In this document: in pieces, positions 3,484 to 43,690 of the stretch | Position numbering within the stretch: the first letter of the stretch is position 1 | Layout of the letters: each line of letters starts with the position of its first letter | Sequence record: NC_134263.1 | Length of the DNA: 64,000 bases | Direction: 5' to 3' (one strand) | Source: Escherichia phage T5_ev219 | Notes under the pieces: model-generated | Told to the model about the DNA's origin: nothing | The model's database searches: none | The model's input: only the letters and a program-made list of their open reading frames with translations | Position numbers and translations under genes: made by a program

Positions 3484-3574
3484 TGGTGTTGGATGATGGA
3501 GTCGAACCACCCGAGACCCTTCCGAGTCGGCAGATTTACAGTCTGCTTCGCTACCTCTACGATACTAATCCAAC
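3484..3574 (-). tRNA. tRNA-Tyr (anticodon GTA), long variable arm
   Basis: Acceptor GTTGGAT/ATCCAAC, anticodon stem GCAGA/TCTGC with loop CTGTAAA, long variable arm, T-arm GTGG-TTCGACT-CCAT, encoded CCA. Confidence 0.8.
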
Positions 3575-3702: not shown

Positions 3703-3978
3703 TTAGTCGAACTTAGGAGTGACAGTTAAGGAGAACGGAAGTTCGAAAACTTCTTCGCCCTCATTACTAACGGTAACTACACGACCTTTAAGTTCAGACA
3801 TTAAAATATCAATATCAGCTTTTGCATCTGGAGCCATGCCAGCTTCAATACATTTAGCTTTAACTTCCGGTAAAAGCTCTACGTTATAGAGATAGAGCCA
3901 CTCAATCTCACCTTCCCAGTCTTCCCAGGATTTGCAGATTGCACTTTCAATACCAGTTGCTACAACACGATTTTGCAT
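3703..3978 (-). CDS. hypothetical protein (91 aa)
   Basis: ORF with promoter at 4009-4038 upstream. Confidence 0.5.
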   Translation of the reverse strand: MQNRVVATGIESAICKSWEDWEGEIEWLYLYNVELLPEVKAKCIEAGMAPDAKADIDILMSELKGRVVTVSNEGEEVFELPFSLTVTPKFD

Positions 3979-4008
3979 TAATTAACTCCTTCATCAATTT
4001 ATATAACT

Positions 4009-4038
4009 ATTATACCAGAAATTTAAAGTAAAAGGCAA
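4009..4038 (-). promoter_or_regulatory. sigma70-type early promoter
   Basis: ATTATA 4009-4014, -35-like AAGGCA 4032-4037. Confidence 0.45.
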
Positions 4039-4068
4039 GTACATTTTTAAAAATTCTGTTTGGAGGAG

Positions 4069-4275
4069 CTAAACTCCAGATTTTTCGGCCAAGTCTAGAC
4101 TAATAAGAGTTATAGCCATAATTGCTGCACCGTGTTCTTTTTCTCCGGTGTTTTTAGCAGAGTCTATAATATCCTTAATCTGTTCGTAATAACTTTTTAC
4201 TTCTTGTTCAATGCCTGCCTCGGCTATCATGCCTTTAGCCATGAATCGTTGCATGGTAATTTCAGGATTAGCCAT
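4069..4275 (-). CDS. hypothetical protein (68 aa)
   Basis: ORF; start ATG overlaps stop of an upstream 55-aa ORF (ATGGCTAA), suggesting translational coupling. Confidence 0.5.
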   Translation of the reverse strand: MANPEITMQRFMAKGMIAEAGIEQEVKSYYEQIKDIIDSAKNTGEKEHGAAIMAITLISLDLAEKSGV

Positions 4276-4437
4276 GTTGTTTCTCCAGTTTCATTTTTAA
4301 TAGTTTACAGATGAAATCAACGTCTTCATCTGTGCCTAAGTCTCTATCCTCAAGGGTCGCCTTGAAGTTTTTCGTCAATTCCATGAGGATGATTTCCCTA
4401 GAACGACGTGTTGGCGGAGGTGGATGTCTATACATCT
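4273..4437 (-). CDS. hypothetical small protein (about 55 aa, below ORF-track cutoff)
   Basis: Hand-translated MYRHPPPPTRRSREIILMELTKNF...; stop overlaps next start. Confidence 0.3.
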
Positions 4438-4450
4438 TATTTCCTTAATT

Positions 4451-4527
4451 TGGTAGGGGTGGTGGGATTCGAACCCACAAAACCTGAATTTTAAGTCCAG
4501 TACCTATGCCAATTCGATTACACCCCC
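4451..4527 (-). tRNA. tRNA with anticodon TAA (Leu-type anticodon, short variable arm), tentative
   Basis: Acceptor GGGGGTG/CACCCCT, anticodon stem CTGGA/TTCAG with loop CTTAAAA, T-arm GTGGG-TTCGAAT-CCCAC, encoded CCA; D-arm poorly paired. Confidence 0.5.
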
Positions 4528-4628
4528 GTGTAATCAGTTTATTAGTTGATACATATTATAGCCTAAAGAAAACCCTACTACTAATCCTACTAACCAACCA
4601 ATATAATAATCTTTTAATTTCACGGGTG

Positions 4629-4814
4629 TCAACCTCGTTCAATATCTAGAGAAATACCACAGGTAGGATTAATGCCTGTGCCTTTGCACGTCGGACAAAC
4701 CCAGATATTACAGAATGTATCCCCTGCTTCTGCATCAGAACTTTCTCCAACTCCTAGACAGTCAGGACAGGCACATTCTTCTAGCTCTTGCTTGAGTTCT
4801 TGAAACTTAGACAT
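4629..4814 (-). CDS. small Cys-rich protein (61 aa, CxxC pairs, zinc-finger-like)
   Basis: CACPDC...CPTCKGTG...C motif pattern. Confidence 0.5.
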   Translation of the reverse strand: MSKFQELKQELEECACPDCLGVGESSDAEAGDTFCNIWVCPTCKGTGINPTCGISLDIERG

Positions 4815-4823
4815 ATAGTTTCC

Positions 4824-5012
4824 TTATTCAATTACTTTTGAGGCTTCAAGGGAGTCGATATAGTGTACGTTTTCTACCATAATCATATAATCTGCCACTT
4901 TATCCATAGCCTGAGCTTCAGAGGTAGCCCTGGCTAACCTATATCCTTTTTTATATTCATCCGGGTATTCCCTATCTGGAATAAACACAACATAAACTAG
5001 GTATAGTTCCAC
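4824..5012 (-). CDS. hypothetical protein (62 aa)
   Basis: ORF directly downstream of tRNA-Met on the transcribed strand. Confidence 0.4.
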   Translation of the reverse strand: MELYLVYVVFIPDREYPDEYKKGYRLARATSEAQAMDKVADYMIMVENVHYIDSLEASKVIE

Positions 5013-5033
5013 TTGTAACCCCTCTAATTAAAC

Positions 5034-5111
5034 TGGTGGCTCCCCGAGGATTCGAACCTACGTACCTTCCGGTTATGAGCCGGGTGCTCATACCATATGA
5101 GCTTGAGAACC
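5034..5111 (-). tRNA. tRNA-Met (anticodon CAT), tentative
   Basis: Acceptor GGTTCTC/GGGAGCC with G-U pairs, anticodon loop CTCATAA flanked by CCGG stems, T-loop TTCGAAT, encoded CCA; T-stem imperfect. Confidence 0.55.
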
Positions 5112-5117
5112 AGAATT

Positions 5118-5207
5118 TGGCGGAAGAAGTGGGAATCGAACCCACAAGGCTATATTTCAAACCGACAGATTAGCAATCTGCTGCAATACCGTTATGCTAT
5201 TCTTCCG
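5118..5207 (-). tRNA. tRNA-Ser (anticodon GCT), long variable arm
   Basis: Acceptor GGAAGAA/TTCTTCC, anticodon stem CAGA/TCTG with loop TTGCTAA, long variable arm, T-arm GTGGG-TTCGATT-CCCAC, encoded CCA. Confidence 0.8.
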
Positions 5208-5221
5208 AATTTATAAGATAT

Positions 5222-5250
5222 ATTATATTAGAAATTTAGCTTCATAGCAA
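5222..5250 (-). promoter_or_regulatory. sigma70-type early promoter driving tRNA-Ser/Met cluster
   Basis: ATTATA 5222-5227, TAGCAA 5245-5250, 17-bp spacer. Confidence 0.55.
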
Positions 5251-5310
5251 GAAAATTTTTCAAGTTTTCGGTAGACATCTCATCCACATCTACAGGAGAA
5301 ACAAATCCAT

Positions 5311-5745
5311 TTAATTGTCTAGCAAATTTTCACCAGCAGGATCATTATCCCCAACAGCTACCAATTTAAAAGGTAATAATTTCAGTTGCTTTAATAACGC
5401 TTTTCCTGGAGAAGAACCCAACATTGCTAGGGCTGGATAACCAGCGTTATGTAACGCAACTGCCTTAAATACAGATTCAGCGATCAATACTACTTTTTCA
5501 TCTCCATTGAGAGTTTCTAGTCCCCATACACACTGGGTAGTAGAATAAGTAAAATATTTAGCTTCAAAGGGACACTTACCATGACCTTTTGGAGCAGAAG
5601 GATTATAAGTTTGATAGCCCCTCAACATCCCAGAGAAGTCATACAACGGGACTGTTAGCCATCCTTCCGGACTTAACCAGCAATGATATTTTTCTGTATC
5701 AAATCCTCTAGATAAGAGGTGCTGTGTTAGCTCATCAACATTCAT
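5311..5745 (-). CDS. stand-alone TOPRIM-domain protein
   Basis: IAESVF (Toprim Glu) and VAVGDNDPAG (DxD) motifs; start moved to MNVDELT because ORF-track start lies upstream of the promoter at 5776-5804; RBS GAGAGAGGAA. Confidence 0.5.
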   Translation of the reverse strand: MNVDELTQHLLSRGFDTEKYHCWLSPEGWLTVPLYDFSGMLRGYQTYNPSAPKGHGKCPFEAKYFTYSTTQCVWGLETLNGDEKVVLIAESVFKAVALHNAGYPALAMLGSSPGKALLKQLKLLPFKLVAVGDNDPAGENLLDN

Positions 5746-5775
5746 ATCTGGTTCCTCTCTCAAATTTATAGATAT

Positions 5776-5804
5776 ATTATACAGAGAATTTAGCATTCAA
5801 GCAA
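5776..5804 (-). promoter_or_regulatory. sigma70-type early promoter
   Basis: ATTATA 5776-5781, AAGCAA 5799-5804, 17-bp spacer, conserved downstream ATAAATTTGAGAGAGG leader. Confidence 0.6.
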
Positions 5805-5920
5805 TCAAATTTTTTAACTTTTTAGAGGAAAATCATAGGGCACTTAAGGGCAGCAGATAAGTGGTGAGGACCAAAATTTGTGACCCCACTAAAAATCCGG
5901 GGGCAATTTTTAAAGACCCT

Positions 5921-5949
5921 TTGACATTTTCGCCGGGGTAGTGTAAAGT
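5921..5949 (+). promoter_or_regulatory. plus-strand sigma70 promoter (TTGACATTTTCGCCG class)
   Basis: TTGACA 5921-5926, 17-bp spacer, TAAAGT -10; the 15-mer TTGACATTTTCGCCG recurs at 34561. Confidence 0.5.
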
Positions 5950-6011
5950 ATATGTTATGGATGAGTGATCAAAGAGACACACATTTTCTATATACTAGGA
6001 GGTGTCAAAAA

Positions 6012-6992
6012 ATGACAGAAGAAGTAGCTAAGAGTCCTGAGACCGTCGCTAGCGTAGCAGCAGAACTGCATCGTCACGAGGAATCAGATAAGAAAAAGTG
6101 GGAGAAGGTCAGAGCCTACGAAGAAGAACATCGTGAACACGATGATAAAGATGAAGAAGATGACGATGATGTACGTTGTCATAAATATGGAAAATATAAA
6201 ATGCAAGAACCAGTAAACGTATTTACTAACGGCTTCCCTGGCATGGGTGCATTCCCAGCTAACGCAAGTGCTTTCGGTGGAGAAGGTATGGGTCTATTCG
6301 GAGCTATCCTAATCGGTGCTCTATTAACCGGCGGATTTGGTGGTTTTGGTGGTTTTGGTCGTGGTGCTGGCGTTGCCGCTGAAGGAACCGCTGTGGACGC
6401 GATCCTTTCTAACCAGGATACTGCAAGTATTCTAGCTGCAATCAATACTACTCGTACAGAAGCTAACCAGGGCACTGGGGCTGTTCTAAGTGCAGTAAAC
6501 GGTGTGGGAGCTGCTCAAGCTGCTAGCACTCAGCAAGTTCTGACTACTATCTACGGTACAGGTGCTAATCTGTCAAACCAGATCTGTGCTGAAACTCGTA
6601 ACGTTATTCAGGGTCAGTTCGATCTTTCTCGTCAGATGGATCAATCTTTCGCTGCTAACCAGATAGCACGTGCTCAAGATAAGTTTGACTCTGCTCAGAT
6701 TGCTTTCCAGCAGTCTATTCAGACCAACAACCAGTTTGCCGCTGTTCAGGCTCAGATGTGCGCTAACCAGAACGCTATCGAACGTCAGCTTGCTGAATGT
6801 TGCTGTGAGCTTCAGACTGCGATCGCTGGTGTAACTACTGCACGTATCCAGGACGAACTGAATGAATGCCGTCTGCGCGAAGCAATCGCTGCAGGTAGCG
6901 GTGCAAATGGTCAGGTAATCAACCAAATCGCTGTAAGTCTTGGTGCTATCACTCAGACTCTGGCTGGTCTGCAGGCTAAACTGCCGGCTTAA
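6012..6992 (+). CDS. hypothetical protein: acidic N-terminus, Gly-rich hydrophobic segment, Q/A/N-rich C-terminal half
   Basis: AGGAGG RBS before ATG 6012; DDKDEEDDDD tract, GMGLFGAILIGALLTGGFGGFGGFG segment; host-like optimised codons (CGT, CTG, GGT). Confidence 0.6.
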   Translation: MTEEVAKSPETVASVAAELHRHEESDKKKWEKVRAYEEEHREHDDKDEEDDDDVRCHKYGKYKMQEPVNVFTNGFPGMGAFPANASAFGGEGMGLFGAILIGALLTGGFGGFGGFGRGAGVAAEGTAVDAILSNQDTASILAAINTTRTEANQGTGAVLSAVNGVGAAQAASTQQVLTTIYGTGANLSNQICAETRNVIQGQFDLSRQMDQSFAANQIARAQDKFDSAQIAFQQSIQTNNQFAAVQAQMCANQNAIERQLAECCCELQTAIAGVTTARIQDELNECRLREAIAAGSGANGQVINQIAVSLGAITQTLAGLQAKLPA

Positions 6993-7013
6993 AATTAAGG
7001 GGAGGAGCCCATT

Positions 7014-7430
7014 ATGAGTAAATATGGTTTTGTGAACAACGGATTTAATCAACCAATGGGCTCCCAGCAGCCCGTTCCGGGTCTGGATAATCCTTACCTA
7101 CAACAGTTGCAACAGCGTTTAGCAGAAGCGCAACAGATGCAGCAACAACTCCAGCAAAACCCTGGAAGTGTGAGTCCTATGCAAATGATGCAGCAAATGA
7201 GCGGGCAGTCGCAAATGCCTCAACAAATGCATCAACAGGTGACTCAGCAGCAAGTTCAGCAGCAAACCCAACAACCGCAGGTTTCTGCGGAAGGACAGGC
7301 AGTACTAGCCCTTTTCGAAGACTTCGCAAAGACAGAGGATGGGAAGCAGCTTGTATCACTTATGGGTAAGTTTAATAGCTTCTGCCAAAGCCAAATTGCA
7401 AAAGCTCAAAATAGCGGTAATAACTCCTAA
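7014..7430 (+). CDS. hypothetical Q-rich protein (138 aa)
   Basis: RBS GGGGAGGAG; extended polyglutamine-rich low-complexity region. Confidence 0.55.
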   Translation: MSKYGFVNNGFNQPMGSQQPVPGLDNPYLQQLQQRLAEAQQMQQQLQQNPGSVSPMQMMQQMSGQSQMPQQMHQQVTQQQVQQQTQQPQVSAEGQAVLALFEDFAKTEDGKQLVSLMGKFNSFCQSQIAKAQNSGNNS

Positions 7431-7439
7431 GGAGGAATT

Positions 7440-7634
7440 ATGTGTTGCAGAAAATCTGTTTCGTGCTGCCCAATGCCTGTAGCACGTTGTTGCTCTCCAG
7501 CAATGTTTACGCAAATACCGGCGTTCAATCCGTTTGCCTTTAAGCCTACTCTTATCCTGCCCCCTAGAGTAGATTTTCAGTCAAGATTGGCCTCCCGTAT
7601 GGGTGGTTGCTGTAACAAGAGTATATGGTTCTAA
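7440..7634 (+). CDS. hypothetical Cys-doublet peptide (64 aa, four CC pairs)
   Basis: RBS AAGGAGGA; MCCRKSVSCC...RCC...GGCC pattern. Confidence 0.5.
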   Translation: MCCRKSVSCCPMPVARCCSPAMFTQIPAFNPFAFKPTLILPPRVDFQSRLASRMGGCCNKSIWF

Positions 7635-7649
7635 GGAACCAAACAATAA

Positions 7650-7686
7650 AGCCCCTAGTCGAAAGACTTAGGGGCTTTTCTTTTAT
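7650..7686 (+). terminator. rho-independent terminator ending the plus-strand module
   Basis: Hairpin AGCCCCTA-gtcgaaagac-TTAGGGGCT followed by TTTTCTTTT. Confidence 0.7.
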
Positions 7687-7690
7687 CTTA

Positions 7691-7731
7691 AATACAGAAA
7701 AGCCCTGCGCTCTCCAGGGAACGCAGGGCTT
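7691..7731 (-). terminator. rho-independent terminator for minus-strand SPFH gene
   Basis: Hairpin AAGCCCTGCG...CGCAGGGCTT followed on minus strand by TTTTCTGTATTT. Confidence 0.65.
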
Positions 7732-36269: not shown

Positions 36270-36304
36270 AAGGGGAGGGGGCTATGCTCCTTCCCCTTTT
36301 TGCA
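36270..36304 (+). terminator. rho-independent terminator
   Basis: Hairpin AAGGGGAGG...CTCCTTCCCCTT followed by TTTTGCATTT. Confidence 0.65.
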
Positions 36305-36337
36305 TTTAGAAGGCACGAAAGCGTGCAAAGGAGAATG

Positions 36338-37807
36338 ACCTTGTTTAACGTGCAAGCTGTAGTGTTGAAGATGCTTCTAGCTTCAGAACAGAAGCAAATA
36401 GCATTGGAAACATTCTCAAAACTGCATAAAGATCATTTTAATGACGCTTTCTCCTCAATTTACCAAGCCGTCCAGAATTATTATAAAAAATATAACACAA
36501 TGCCGTCCATTGACGCACTGATGCTTGAGGCTAATAGGAACGCCCGCCTTTCTCAAGCTCTAGTCGTTTTAGCTAACACTCAAATTCCAGAAGTTAGCAT
36601 GGAACAGGCACTTGAAGTCCTAGAGGCCGAGTATACACAGGATTTATTCCTGAAGCTTCTAGAAACAGACGTGCTTCAAGATTTAACAATGCTGGATCAG
36701 GGAGAAATTCTTAACCGAGTTGCCTCCCTTCACTTAAAATTAGAAGAGAAAGTAACGAATACTGGAAAAGTATTCAACGCAGATAACATGCGTATTTTCC
36801 AGAGAGAAGAAGATACCAAACTGAACTTAATCGCTCTTGGTATTTGTAATGAGTTCGACGCTCAAATTGGTTTAGCTCGCACAGAAACGTTACTGCTTGG
36901 TGGTTGGCGTGGTACTGGTAAATCCATTATCTGTTCAAACATACAGGTTCAGCAATATTTGAATGGAGATATTGCTCCATACTTCTCAATTGAGATGAAA
37001 GAACATGAAGTATTTAGACGTAATCTAGCCATGTTAGCTGGTGTATCAGCACTAGCAATGCGTAATAATACTCTAGAAGGTGCAGCTCTGTTGAGATTAG
37101 CCAGAACTAGAGCTAGGATGTTTAACGGTGGTGAAGAGCTTTTCGATAACTTCGTTAAACAGTACACAATGGCTAAGATGAGTGATTTCTACGATATGGA
37201 AAGTAAGCTAATAGAAGGGTATGAACTACATACTCCTATGATTATTGTTTATGATCCTGAGCTGTCTATTACAACAGTTGACGTAGAATTAAATAAATTA
37301 GTTGCTAGATATGGTGATAAAGTTACAGTAGCTTTACTTGACTATATTAACCAAACCCGACTTCCAGATTCTAAAACCATTGATATGTATGACTGGAAAG
37401 AACAGATGGTTGTTAGCTCGTCTTTCAAATCTATCTGCCAGAAACATAACGTGGCTGGTGTAGCTCCTTACCAGATTGATCAAGATGGTAGAACACGTAT
37501 GTCAAAGGGGATTCTTGATTCCGCAGACATGGCTGCTAATCTTAATGCTGCAAAAGCTGATAATGGTCAAGGTGCTATTATGTTTGACTTCGTTAAGACT
37601 CGTTCTTCTGATAGTGTGAAGTTTATGCCTAAAATGAACTGGGAAACCCTACGGATGGATAACACTACCAACCTAGCAATGGAAGATATATCTCAAATGG
37701 AAGCTGAGTTCGTTATCCCTATTGAGAAGGATAAGCCGGCTCAATCTAAACGTGCTAAGAAAGACAAAGCTGAAAATTCAACAGGTGAACAGGCCAGCGA
37801 TATATGA
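36338..37807 (+). CDS. DnaB-like replicative helicase (RecA-fold ATPase)
   Basis: Walker A GGWRGTGKS, Walker B IIVYDPEL; start moved to MTLFNVQ (RBS AAAGGAGA) because the ORF-track start lies in the terminator. Confidence 0.65.
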   Translation, partial: TLFNVQAVVLKMLLASEQKQIALETFSKLHKDHFNDAFSSIYQAVQNYYKKYNTMPSIDALMLEANRNARLSQALVVLANTQIPEVSMEQALEVLEAEYTQDLFLKLLETDVLQDLTMLDQGEILNRVASLHLKLEEKVTNTGKVFNADNMRIFQREEDTKLNLIALGICNEFDAQIGLARTETLLLGGWRGTGKSIICSNIQVQQYLNGDIAPYFSIEMKEHEVFRRNLAMLAGVSALAMRNNTLEGAALLRLARTRARMFNGGEELFDNFVKQYTMAKMSDFYDMESKLIEGYELHTPMIIVYDPELSITTVDVELNKLVARYGDKVTVALLDYINQTRLPDSKTIDMYDWKEQMVVSSSFKSICQKHNVAGVAPYQIDQDGRTRMSKGILDSADMAANLNAAKADNGQGAIMFDFVKTRSSDSVKFMPKMNWETLRMDNTTNLAMEDISQMEAEFVIPIEKDKPAQSKRAKKDKAENSTGEQASDI

Positions 37808-38334
37808 TAACACAGGAACGACTAAAAGAACTGTTTGACTACTCCCCAGAGACTGGGGAGTTTACTAGAAAAGTATCTAGAGGCAATCAGAAAGCTGGTA
37901 GTATTGCGGGTACTCTAGATAGTGGATACATACGGATAAAGGTAGATAGAAAATTATACTTTGCACACCAACTAGCCTTCCTATATATGGAAGGATATAT
38001 GCCAGAGGAAGTAGACCATATTAATCGAATTACTTGGGATAATAGATGGATTAATATTAGGCCATCCACCCGGCAAGAAAATAGCAGAAATAAAACAGCT
38101 AGAAGTAAATCTGGATACTTGGGAGTTTTCTGGTTTAAGCGGGATCACAAATGGCATGTAAGAGTAGTAAATTCTATGGGAGAAAAAGTTCACGGTGGGC
38201 TCTTTAATTACGCAGATCTAAAGCTTGCAGTCACTAAAGCCAATGAACTACGTCTACAATTACATGGAGAAAATGCTGTTCAAGAGATCTTTGATCCAAC
38301 TAAGTATCCTTCACTGGAGGAGTTAAATTCATGA
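37804..38334 (+). CDS. HNH homing endonuclease, copy 2
   Basis: Paralog of 15203..15751 (LAFLYMEG...VDHINR...DNRWINIR...SGYLGVFW); overlaps helicase stop and primase start by 4 nt each. Confidence 0.75.
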   Translation: MITQERLKELFDYSPETGEFTRKVSRGNQKAGSIAGTLDSGYIRIKVDRKLYFAHQLAFLYMEGYMPEEVDHINRITWDNRWINIRPSTRQENSRNKTARSKSGYLGVFWFKRDHKWHVRVVNSMGEKVHGGLFNYADLKLAVTKANELRLQLHGENAVQEIFDPTKYPSLEELNS

Positions 38335-39221
38335 GTAGAATAACAGAATTACTTGATCTTAAGGGAATTGAGTATAAAGATACTGGTGGAGATATTTTAA
38401 TCTGTTGCTTAAATCCAGATCATGACGATAAACACCCAAGTTTGCGTATTGACCCTGAAACAGGTATTATGCACTGCTTGAGTTGTGGCTTCGGTAAAGG
38501 TATACCGAGCATTTACCATTATTTTAATGAGACTCAGTACCGACAGTCCCCAAGGCTATCGCAAGTACGTAAAAAGATTTCAGAGATTAGGAATGGATCA
38601 ACGAATCTTGCAATTCCTGAATCTGCTTGCCTTTTCGAAGGTGATTTCCGAGGTATAAGTTCTAAGACCTTGAAGAAATATTTTGCTTTCCAACACCAAG
38701 CAGACTGGGAAGGCAGAATTGTATTCCCAATCACAGATGCTGTTGGACGCAATATCCTATTTTTGGGTCGTTCTATAAACAGTTCTGCCCCTCCTAAATA
38801 CTTAGTAAAACCAAAACAAGTTTCACCGCCAATTTTTCCTGTACGATATAATACTCCAGTTCTTATTCTAGTTGAAGGCATCTTTGATATGCTGAACCTA
38901 GAGGATAATGGTATAGACTATACTTCTTGCTGCTTTGGTACACACCAGTTTACTTCGGATAACATTGCAGATAAGTTCAGTCCTTATATTATTGCCGGTG
39001 TAAAAGTTGTTGTTATCTTACTAGATAATGATGCTTCTGGTAATAAAGCTGCCCAGGCGCTAGCAAAATTAATTAGTACAAAAACGCGTTTAACACCTGT
39101 AGTTGCTAACTTTCTTCTGCCTGAAGGTAAAGACCCTGGTGACTTAAATAAAGAAGAGATTGATATGTTAGCAAAACGTATTGAAATTTTAGTTGCTGAA
39201 TCGCTTAAAGATTTGGTATAA
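38331..39221 (+). CDS. DNA primase (DnaG-like, Zn finger plus TOPRIM)
   Basis: Zn-binding CCLNPDHDDKHPS...HCLSCG, TOPRIM LVEGIFD and LLDNDASG. Confidence 0.8.
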   Translation: MSRITELLDLKGIEYKDTGGDILICCLNPDHDDKHPSLRIDPETGIMHCLSCGFGKGIPSIYHYFNETQYRQSPRLSQVRKKISEIRNGSTNLAIPESACLFEGDFRGISSKTLKKYFAFQHQADWEGRIVFPITDAVGRNILFLGRSINSSAPPKYLVKPKQVSPPIFPVRYNTPVLILVEGIFDMLNLEDNGIDYTSCCFGTHQFTSDNIADKFSPYIIAGVKVVVILLDNDASGNKAAQALAKLISTKTRLTPVVANFLLPEGKDPGDLNKEEIDMLAKRIEILVAESLKDLV

Positions 39222-41851: not shown

Positions 41852-42341
41852 TTTCAAATTGCCCGTCTATGCGTTACGGGCGTTTGTATCAATTGAGCAA
41901 GAAGGTGATTATTCCGTAATTACAACAAGATATAATAAATATGTGCTAGATAACAGGAAGTTGCCTGGCACGTTTTCTCAACGTAGGCTTATTCTATTTG
42001 AGAAACGGAAAGAATTACCATACAAGCTTTATCCTATTAGGGGTAGAATATCAATGTTGTCTCAATTAGTTGGGTCAAAGCGTAACCAATTTATAGATTC
42101 TGATGGAAATCTTATTAATTGGAAGAAAACTACGTTCTATGATGTTGTCACCTCTAAAGTTTTGCATTCAGCTAGAATTTATAATGGAAAATACCAATGC
42201 TATGTGGCTAAAGTTCCTTATCCATTTGTATTATCCTATGTTCCAGCTTATATAAGCTATATTCTGGTAAATAATAGCCCTGTTATTTATCAAGTCCATC
42301 AAGAGGAGCCTGAAATTCCTAGACTTAGAATAAAATTATGA
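41844..42341 (+). CDS. hypothetical protein (165 aa)
   Basis: ORF overlapping polymerase stop and helicase start. Confidence 0.5.
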   Translation: MLNFKLPVYALRAFVSIEQEGDYSVITTRYNKYVLDNRKLPGTFSQRRLILFEKRKELPYKLYPIRGRISMLSQLVGSKRNQFIDSDGNLINWKKTTFYDVVTSKVLHSARIYNGKYQCYVAKVPYPFVLSYVPAYISYILVNNSPVIYQVHQEEPEIPRLRIKL

Positions 42342-43690
42342 AGGTTGTTATATCTAATAAAGCCTATTTCAAGCCAGATGATGAACTTTGGGATTATTGT
42401 AGTAAGCAAACCACTTATCACATAGAGACAATGACTAGTAAATACCCTATTATGTATAAGAATAGTGGTGTTGTTGCCAAAGAGATTAAGTGGATTCCTA
42501 TTACGCGTCTGGACTTACTAGATGCTAAAGGAGTAAAATACGAATTAGTCGATAAACGCACATTAGCACCGGTAGATATACCAAAACCGTCGTTTAAACT
42601 GCGTGAAGAAGATCAGCTTCCAATATATGAAGAATGCGATGATACCTGTATTATTAATGGTAAGCCTGGGTTTGGTAAAACTATCCTAGCACTTGCACTT
42701 GCGTATAAATTTGGTCAGAAAACTTTGGTAATCTGTACGAATACATCCATTCGTGAAATGTGGGCGGCAGAAGTTCGTAAATGGTTTGGGTTTGAACCAG
42801 GCATCATAGGTTCTGGGAAATACAATATTGATCCACCAATTGTAGTCAGTAATATTCAAACAGTGAATAAACATGCGAATAATCTTTCTAAAGTATTCGG
42901 TACTGTTATAGTTGATGAAGTTCACCATTGTGTGGCTACAACTTTCACTAACTTCCTAGAAATATCATGTGCTCGCTATAAAATTGGACTATCTGGTACA
43001 CTAAAACGAAAAGATGGTTTACAAGTTATGTTCAAAGATTTCTTTGGATATAAGATATTTAGCCCACCGGTTAATAATACTGTTGCACCTACAATCCATA
43101 GGTACTCCGTGCCTGTTGAGCTATCAGGAAACCAAAACGTACCGTGGGCATTACGTGCTAATGATGTGTATAACCATCCTGAATATCGAGAGACTATTAT
43201 AAACCTAGCACATTTATATGTGAATATGGGACATAAGGTAATCATTGTAAGTGATAGAACAGAGTTAATCCAAACAGTACTAGAAGCTCTTACACAGCGT
43301 GGTGTTACAACCTATGAAATTATAGGAGCAACCCACTTAGATGACCGATTAAAAATTCAGGAAGATATAGCAAAAGGTGGACCTTGTGTACTTGCAGCAG
43401 CTCAAAGTATCTTCTCTGAAGGTATTTCCCTTAATGAGCTGTCTTGTTTAATAATGGGAAGCCTCATTAATAATGAATCTCTCATTGAACAGCTTGCAGG
43501 CCGTGTTCAACGTATTGTCGAGGGCAAACTCGACCCTATTGTTGTAGATCTAATCATGAAAGGTGGCACTGGACTAAGACAGGCTTCTGGACGTATGGCA
43601 GTATATCGTAACAACGGGTGGAAAACTATTACTATGACTCCGGAGAAAGCAGTTCAATTAGCTAAAATTGCATTTGGCAACAGCTCATAA
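42338..43690 (+). CDS. SF2 DNA helicase (DEAH-type)
   Basis: Walker A GKPGFGKT, Walker B DEVHH, motif VI QLAGRVQR. Confidence 0.8.
   Translation: MKVVISNKAYFKPDDELWDYCSKQTTYHIETMTSKYPIMYKNSGVVAKEIKWIPITRLDLLDAKGVKYELVDKRTLAPVDIPKPSFKLREEDQLPIYEECDDTCIINGKPGFGKTILALALAYKFGQKTLVICTNTSIREMWAAEVRKWFGFEPGIIGSGKYNIDPPIVVSNIQTVNKHANNLSKVFGTVIVDEVHHCVATTFTNFLEISCARYKIGLSGTLKRKDGLQVMFKDFFGYKIFSPPVNNTVAPTIHRYSVPVELSGNQNVPWALRANDVYNHPEYRETIINLAHLYVNMGHKVIIVSDRTELIQTVLEALTQRGVTTYEIIGATHLDDRLKIQEDIAKGGPCVLAAAQSIFSEGISLNELSCLIMGSLINNESLIEQLAGRVQRIVEGKLDPIVVDLIMKGGTGLRQASGRMAVYRNNGWKTITMTPEKAVQLAKIAFGNSS

Follow-up and report, generated by a model that had tools for sequence, protein, structure and literature searches.

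The open reading frame at 5311-5745 on the minus strand of the window, as we call the whole 64,000-nt stretch of DNA analysed here, is a copy of an already known gene, the anti-retron gene rad, and it is interrupted by a frameshift. The window derives from a T5-like phage (Tequintavirus); its bases 4000-9000 are ~97% identical to Salmonella phage VSe12 and to the Escherichia phages OSYSP and chee24. The frame spans 435 nt (144 codons and a stop), begins with MNVDEL and comprises residues 1-139 of Rad, followed by five out-of-frame residues, NLLDN, and a TAA at 5311-5313. In VEc33, T5, SP15 and most relatives the gene codes for 172 aa. The initial annotation had reported a 145-aa ORF in the tRNA island, of which the ORF and the tRNA setting stand; the product, however, has 144 aa and stems from a truncated allele of the 172-aa protein, a frameshift in a conserved gene that this first reading had missed.

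Sequence and position both identify the window gene and SP15 ORF75 as one gene. The window ORF is 97% identical to SP15 E0157_075 over 158 aa, a 17-residue upstream extension included, and 95% identical to the T5 copy. As in SP15, T5 and VEc33, rad belongs to the tRNA-rich early region, and tRNA-Ser(GCU) follows immediately 3' of it at 5118-5206 on the minus strand. In the T5 record AY587007, rad is the 'DNA primase' CDS without a number that lies between ORF070 and ORF072 (37201-37719, 172 aa), and the T5 ORF071 'DNA primase' protein is AAX12008.1. Homologues of the window ORF are present in 477 phage records, and Proteus phage Privateer is among the tblastn matches to rad.

Whereas the initial annotation gave the function as unknown, the gene is the orthologue of a published anti-retron factor, SP15 Rad/ORF75 and T5 ORF071. 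The T5 protein, formerly called a primase for its TOPRIM domain, has been established as Rad, an inhibitor of retron immunity (PMC10644984), and ORF75 of phage SP15 was named rad, for retron anti-defense, in a preprint (10.1101/2023.03.15.532788). According to the preprint, Rad neutralises the retrons Ec67, Ec78 and Ec83, plus Ec48 and Se72; msDNA and msr-msd RNA go down in its presence, and the transcripts of the reverse transcriptase (RT) and the effector are unchanged. The substitutions R13E, P33T, I88T, D135H and E156H weaken Rad, and the homologue of Proteus phage Privateer is active too (10.1101/2023.03.15.532788). Peer-reviewed work describes ORF75 as the determinant of the escape of T5n and SP15m from the retrons Eco2 and Eco7; its mechanism could not be determined there, the function was deferred to later work and the degradation claim was dropped (PMC11555353). 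[quoted passage not shown]

The mutant positions of the preprint, R13, P33, I88, D135 and E156, coincide with those residues in the numbering of the 172-aa protein. The window copy resembles SP15 ORF75 and T5 ORF071 in sequence, in its neighbours and in keeping R13, P33, I88 and D135. It differs from both in ending at 144 instead of 172 aa and hence in lacking D155, E156 and the family-conserved D153, all of which lie beyond the frameshift.

The gene probably starts at MNVDEL. A Shine-Dalgarno-like GAGG at 5754-5757 (minus strand), read from the sequence, lies 8 nt 5' of the ATG at 5745. A promoter-like element, TTGCTT-17 nt-TATAAT, was read by eye 5' of rad at 5776-5804 (minus strand); it is absent from the consensus scan because its -35 hexamer has only 3/6 matches, and it overlaps the position of the T5 'repeat c copy 2' (T5 37729-37757, equal to window 5755-5783 by the offset from the CDS start). 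The ORF can be extended in frame on its 5' side (5746-5796, minus strand) from an ATG at 5794-5796, which yields a 161-aa ORF in the window and is the start that underlies the 189-aa SP15 annotation. This upstream ATG is probably untranslated, since it falls between the two hexamers of the promoter-like element, in the spacer, and is not preceded by a ribosome binding site. Distant Rad homologues likewise begin at the MNVDEL position, and the mutant numbering of the preprint agrees with the shorter, 172-aa form (10.1101/2023.03.15.532788).

The frameshift arises at an A-run at 5327-5330 (minus strand), which has four A in the window, five in the relatives and six in VSe12, and reads AAAAG in T5. 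In the DNA alignment the relatives show GGTGAAAAATTTGC and the window GGTGAAAATTTGC, so that one A is missing at 5327-5330. The frame is lost after residue 139 (…GDNDPAGE), with residue 140, a Lys in the intact protein, already substituted, and about 31-33 C-terminal residues of Rad are cut off. The 3' remnant of rad persists out of frame at 5228-5326 (minus strand) as 32 intact codons, FARQLNGFVSPVDVDEMSTENLKNFLAMKLNF, followed by the original TAA at 5228-5230. It codes for Toprim motif VI (D153, D155, E156) and the C-terminal helix, and tblastn finds a second segment in the shifted frame (5329-5231) that matches residues 157-189 of SP15 Rad, 33 residues, at 97% identity. Mapped onto an AF2 model, the parts lost are the end of helix 136-144, the last strand beta-4, motif VI and the terminal helix 159-170.

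Provided that the base call is right, the truncated product without D153 and E156 is probably inactive or severely weakened. The deletion also makes the heptamer A_AAT_TTG (5324-5330), at which, more speculatively, a rare -1 slip might give a full-length product with only KF changed to NL; the allele would then be leaky. Programmed frameshifting as the normal way of expressing rad was considered as well and is ruled out by the single open frame in 24 of 26 relatives.

The copy of rad in the window is thus either broken or mis-sequenced. That the frameshift is a homopolymer sequencing or assembly error, and that the phage truly codes for an intact 172-aa Rad, comes close to an even chance but falls somewhat short of it. 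The 32 codons downstream and the original stop show no decay, rad is under strong purifying selection among the relatives, and VSe12, the nearest genome, carries one A too many in the same run. Moreover, no record in the phage collection carries a match through the frameshifted tail; among the T5-like high-identity matches listed, all end at query residue 141. On the other hand, the rad deletion is the sole non-triplet coding indel against all five relatives compared over the surrounding 5.4 kb, and the long essential ORFs elsewhere in the window are unbroken, hence the window sequence is not generally error-ridden. Natural loss of rad does happen, as in phage NBEco002 with its nonsense codon at position 83, and the laboratory phages T5n, SP15m and BF23 are without the region (PMC10644984; 10.1101/2023.03.15.532788).

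Among T5-like copies taken from IMG/VR, rad is intact in 24 of 26. The disrupted ones are that of Salmonella phage VSe12 (2501-3017), with the additional A, and that of NBEco002, in which codon 83 has changed from GAA to TAA; rad has been repeatedly lost or miscalled among T5-like genomes. In AKFV33 the gene codes for GNND where others have GDND. The intact T5-like copies have a pairwise dN/dS of ~0.05, with 0.08 for the N-terminal part, 0.03 for the Toprim part and 0.09 for the C-terminal tail. Such values mean strong purifying selection across the family, and the tail that is lost here matters. Synonymous divergence is lower in the tail (pS 0.14 vs 0.22), which may be because the promoter of tRNA-Ser lies in the last codons: a sigma-70-like TTGCTA-17-TATAAT is found at 5222-5250 (minus strand), within the 3' end of the intact rad frame.

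An exhaustive HMMER search yielded 430 cluster representatives of the Rad family, whereas a word-indexed protein search gave only 9 relatives. Among the cluster representatives listed, most are stand-alone proteins of 160-190 aa. Genomic settings differ among Rad-family homologues: in Kagunavirus XY1 (42205-42720) the gene for a 171-aa homologue belongs to the replication module and overlaps the stop of the helicase gene there, Vibrio phage F98 (2893-3429) has the homologue beside a tRNA nucleotidyltransferase, and the jumbo phages of Erwinia and Dickeya carry it split in two frames (Dickeya phage AD1, 3001-3421).

The tRNA island around rad contains further counter-defence genes. ARAGORN finds 14 tRNAs in the window. 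An extra one at 5037-5111 (minus strand) is absent from its output and was detected with Rfam (40.3 bits); as VEc33, SP15 and T5 annotate a tRNA-Met at this position, the island holds at least 15 tRNAs. Past tRNA-Ser lie, as in SP15, the homologues of SP15 ORF71-74 and a tRNA-Tyr. The latter (3484-3574, minus strand) is identical to the SP15 tRNA-Tyr over its 75 annotated nt, and the homologues of ORF71, ORF72 and ORF73 (3706-3978, 4072-4275 and 4271-4384, all minus strand) have 96%, 91% and 97% identity. According to the literature, tRNA-Tyr counters retron Eco7, and two of SP15 ORF71-73 together counter retron Ec83. With the intact tRNA-Tyr and the ORF71-73 homologues, the window thus holds the rest of the published anti-retron set.

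Several other genes of this region deserve mention in their own right. A tRNA-like gene at 9313-9386 (minus strand) is assigned the anticodon ACT ('Ser') by ARAGORN, and its VEc33 equivalent is a tRNA-OTHER pseudogene in RefSeq. Beside rad and divergent from it are two plus-strand ORFs without Pfam match: 5952-6992 codes for 346 aa, among them an acidic stretch and the Gly-rich segment GFGGFGGFG, and 7014-7430 for a very Gln-rich product of 138 aa, the T5 counterpart of which is called 'cAMP-dependent protein kinase catalytic subunit', a name unsupported by Pfam. On the minus strand the island furthermore encodes a cREC_REC receiver (cyclic-phosphate processing, 55 bits) at 10783-11100, a Band 7/SPFH protein at 7755-8702, a T5orf172/MUG113 protein at 2095-2613 and a CxxC-rich ORF of 61 aa at 4629-4814. 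The last has a sub-threshold Anti-TRAP match and is missing at this spot in SP15 and VEc33.

To describe the fold, we used an AF2 model of the 172-aa orthologue, calculated from a six-sequence alignment (mean pLDDT 89, pTM 0.85). According to the model, Rad is a minimal primase catalytic core of the DnaG/T7-gp4 type, composed of a short N-terminal subdomain and a Toprim domain. Foldseek matches in the PDB extend over about 170-190 columns and include the E. coli DnaG catalytic core (3b39, 1dde, 1eqn) and the T7 gp4 primase fragment 1nui, with a TM-score normalised to the query (TMq) of 0.68; further matches are other DnaG RNA-polymerase domains and the primase-like domain of Twinkle. The predicted fold and the Foldseek matches are Toprim and not of another fold, in support of the original domain call. 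Profile comparison with hhalign points in the same direction: the family profile, built from 121 stand-alone representatives, aligns with E. coli DnaG residues 176-364 at 96.7% probability and, at 94.7%, with the canonical primase of the window (residues 127-284). In these alignments the EG motif falls on E90, DxD on D133 and D135, and KDPGD on D153. When the family profile is compared with T7 gp4 as a single sequence, the match is weak (18.8% probability, Toprim part only), and the relationship to T7 gp4 therefore rests on Foldseek and an added-sequence alignment; the latter cannot be relied on midway through the N-subdomain, and it distorts the T7 numbering after residue 157.

For the Pfam Toprim domain (PF13155/PF01751), the Toprim_2 score of the truncated ORF itself, 19.4 bits, is below the cut-off of 22.1, which the intact 172-aa orthologue clears with 25.2 bits, and a sequence search of the PDB returned only chance matches (xylanases, E > 0.2). 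In PHROG, phrog_849 'DNA primase' is hit with E=9e-55 over profile positions 146-303 of 435; together with the 477 records that have a homologue, this puts the Toprim signal beyond chance. The Toprim motifs of the window ORF read IAE90SVF and GD133ND135PAG; the Toprim Glu and DxD of the initial annotation are thus present as E90, D133 and D135. The statement that it has no zinc finger or helicase-interaction domain also agrees with what we see: the translation shows neither a Cys/His zinc-finger motif nor a helicase-binding region at the C-terminus, and the Pfam search found no zinc-ribbon match. Intact Rad ends just past the Toprim domain and likewise has no helicase-interaction domain or fused helicase.

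Across the 121 representatives the Toprim residues are highly conserved (E90 99%, D133 88%, D135 95%, G138 95%, D153 92%), as are residues of the N-subdomain (R13 98%, G43 100%, Y47 98%, Y64 100%, G75 100%). The family has all three acidic motifs, IV (E), V (DxD) and VI (D), of which the window ORF retains IV and V and loses VI.

The canonical DnaG-type primase of the phage is encoded 32.6 kb away at 38331-39221 (plus strand), which confirms that the Toprim protein stands alone, apart from the DnaG-like primase. This 296-aa protein contains a CHC2 zinc ribbon, DNAG_N and Toprim, scores above the Pfam thresholds of DNAG_N, several Toprim models and Zn_ribbon_DnaG (28.3 bits, cut-off 24.9), and adjoins a DnaB-like helicase at 36284-37807. 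An HNH_3 homing-endonuclease ORF (37804-38334, plus strand, 176 aa, 46 bits) is wedged between helicase and primase and overlaps both. Only profile methods connect Rad with this primase. In line with the missing zinc-binding domain, a sequence alignment of the two begins at about residue 100 of the primase. A recent paralogue of the primase, which was also considered, can be ruled out for Rad, as BLASTP aligns the DxD region only (E=0.026).

Compared with the RNA-polymerase domains of DnaG and T7 gp4, Rad has the same two-subdomain fold over its full length (TMq 0.60-0.68), and motifs IV, V (DxDxxG) and VI align. It differs in the absence of the zinc-binding, C-terminal helical and helicase-binding parts and in a sequence identity of 15-20%; where DnaG has the arginine of GFGGR (R221), the profile alignment shows a Tyr in Rad. 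The roles differ too, counter-defence for Rad and replication for DnaG and T7 gp4. MG010-type truncated DnaG paralogues (NCBIfam TIGR00646) are, like Rad, DnaG-like, zinc-finger-less and small (~200 aa), but the match is faint, with 19 bits against a cut-off of 260, and is a lead, not a relationship.

RNase M5, a small Toprim enzyme that matures 5S rRNA and cuts structured RNA with two metal ions, offers a different comparison. Its Toprim domain (6z2b, 6tpq) superposes on that of Rad with an rmsd of 2.1-2.9 Å over 95-105 columns. Similarity is confined to the Toprim part (TMq 0.42-0.46, E from about 4e-3 to 2e-2); RNase M5 has its own C-terminal domain, whereas Rad has a primase-type N-terminal subdomain.

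Overall, we consider it likely that the gene is a Rad orthologue with a primase core, that Rad attacks retron ncRNA or msDNA, probably by metal-dependent cleavage, and that the copy in the window is inactive or weakened if the base call is right. As the affected retrons differ in their effectors, Rad probably targets the ncRNA/msDNA/RT module that they share, and what it attacks would be present in every retron, either the msr-msd ncRNA or the msDNA hybrid. By analogy with the Toprim enzyme RNase M5, the most likely activity would be metal-dependent cleavage of the structured ncRNA or of an RNA-DNA hybrid. Rad would use its primase-type nucleic-acid groove together with the two-metal site of the Toprim domain, and cleavage would keep msDNA from accumulating, so that the retron effector would not be armed. 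Residues in both subdomains are needed, mutations in each weakening the activity (10.1101/2023.03.15.532788). Some observations fit cleavage less well. Its basis is the lower RNA and DNA levels in vivo in the preprint, a claim dropped in PMC11555353; a simple Toprim nuclease could do with much less of the primase active site than Rad retains; and the closest structural relatives of Rad in Foldseek are polymerases, not nucleases.

These points lead to a second, rather unlikely reading, in which Rad is not a nuclease but a primase-like binder or polymerase acting on single-stranded msDNA or an ncRNA template. It would block reverse transcription or effector sensing, or make a short RNA on msDNA, and the fall in ncRNA and msDNA would be secondary. 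The similarity to primase RNA-polymerase domains in structure and profile is full-length and includes the ssDNA-bound 3b39, and the nearly invariant residues R13, G43, Y47, Y64 and G75 of the N-subdomain lie outside the Toprim domain. R13 aligns with R84 of T7 gp4 in the added-sequence alignment, R13E and P33T weaken activity (10.1101/2023.03.15.532788), and the authors of the later study left the mechanism open (PMC11555353). The Tyr in place of the GFGGR arginine speaks against primase-like chemistry. As far as is known, T7 and bacterial primases need a zinc-binding domain for template-directed synthesis, and Rad has none. The loss of ncRNA in the preprint data is likewise difficult to reconcile with it (10.1101/2023.03.15.532788). 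A bolder form, to which we give a low probability, sees in Rad a 'mini-primase' that is catalytically competent and acts on the msDNA/ncRNA hybrid by primase-type chemistry or binding, disarming retrons in this way and not as a simple RNase.

An auxiliary or alternative primase in replication, as many GenBank records have it, is very improbable. PHROG and RefSeq apply the label 'DNA primase', and the Kagunavirus homologue sits in the replication module, where it overlaps with the stop of a helicase gene. The Kagunavirus helicase, however, showed no similarity to the T5 D10-like helicase of the window, so that this neighbour provides no functional link for Rad. Rad itself lacks zinc-binding and helicase-binding domains and is placed among tRNAs and counter-defence genes, outside the replication module. 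Since a complete primase is encoded beside the DnaB-like helicase of the phage and the region can be deleted, phages without it being viable (PMC10644984; 10.1101/2023.03.15.532788; PMC11555353), a role in replication is unlikely.

The initial annotation had also pointed to OLD-family and anti-phage contexts. P2 OLD, GajA and the PARIS protein AriB share with Rad a Toprim catalytic domain and a part in phage-host conflict, but they are ATPase-linked defence effectors, whereas Rad has no ATPase and acts against defence; as a whole, the protein is of the DnaG/T7-gp4 type and its role is counter-defence. PADLOC found nothing for OLD, Gabija/GajA or PARIS/AriB with Rad and reported only a weak match, to the model of a DnaG-like protein that accompanies defence reverse transcriptases. 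That Rad is a Toprim nuclease of the OLD, Gabija or PARIS type, serving phage defence or superinfection exclusion, can practically be dismissed: the family does have a Toprim domain with an intact acidic triad, but Rad has no ATPase domain and no adjacent ATPase gene, and there is no OLD-family protein among the Foldseek matches listed.

On the mechanism of Rad the window adds only a truncation, natural or artefactual. The conserved set R13, G43, Y47, Y64, G75, E90, D133, D135, G138 and D153 provides candidates to separate nuclease from primase-like mechanisms; if Rad did act as a mini-primase, it would be a new way of making the core of a replication enzyme into a broad counter-defence. Hundreds of phage records label rad 'DNA primase' or 'hypothetical protein' though it is a counter-defence gene against retrons. 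With an interrupted copy of this gene, the phage described here may be sensitive to retrons if the base call is right.
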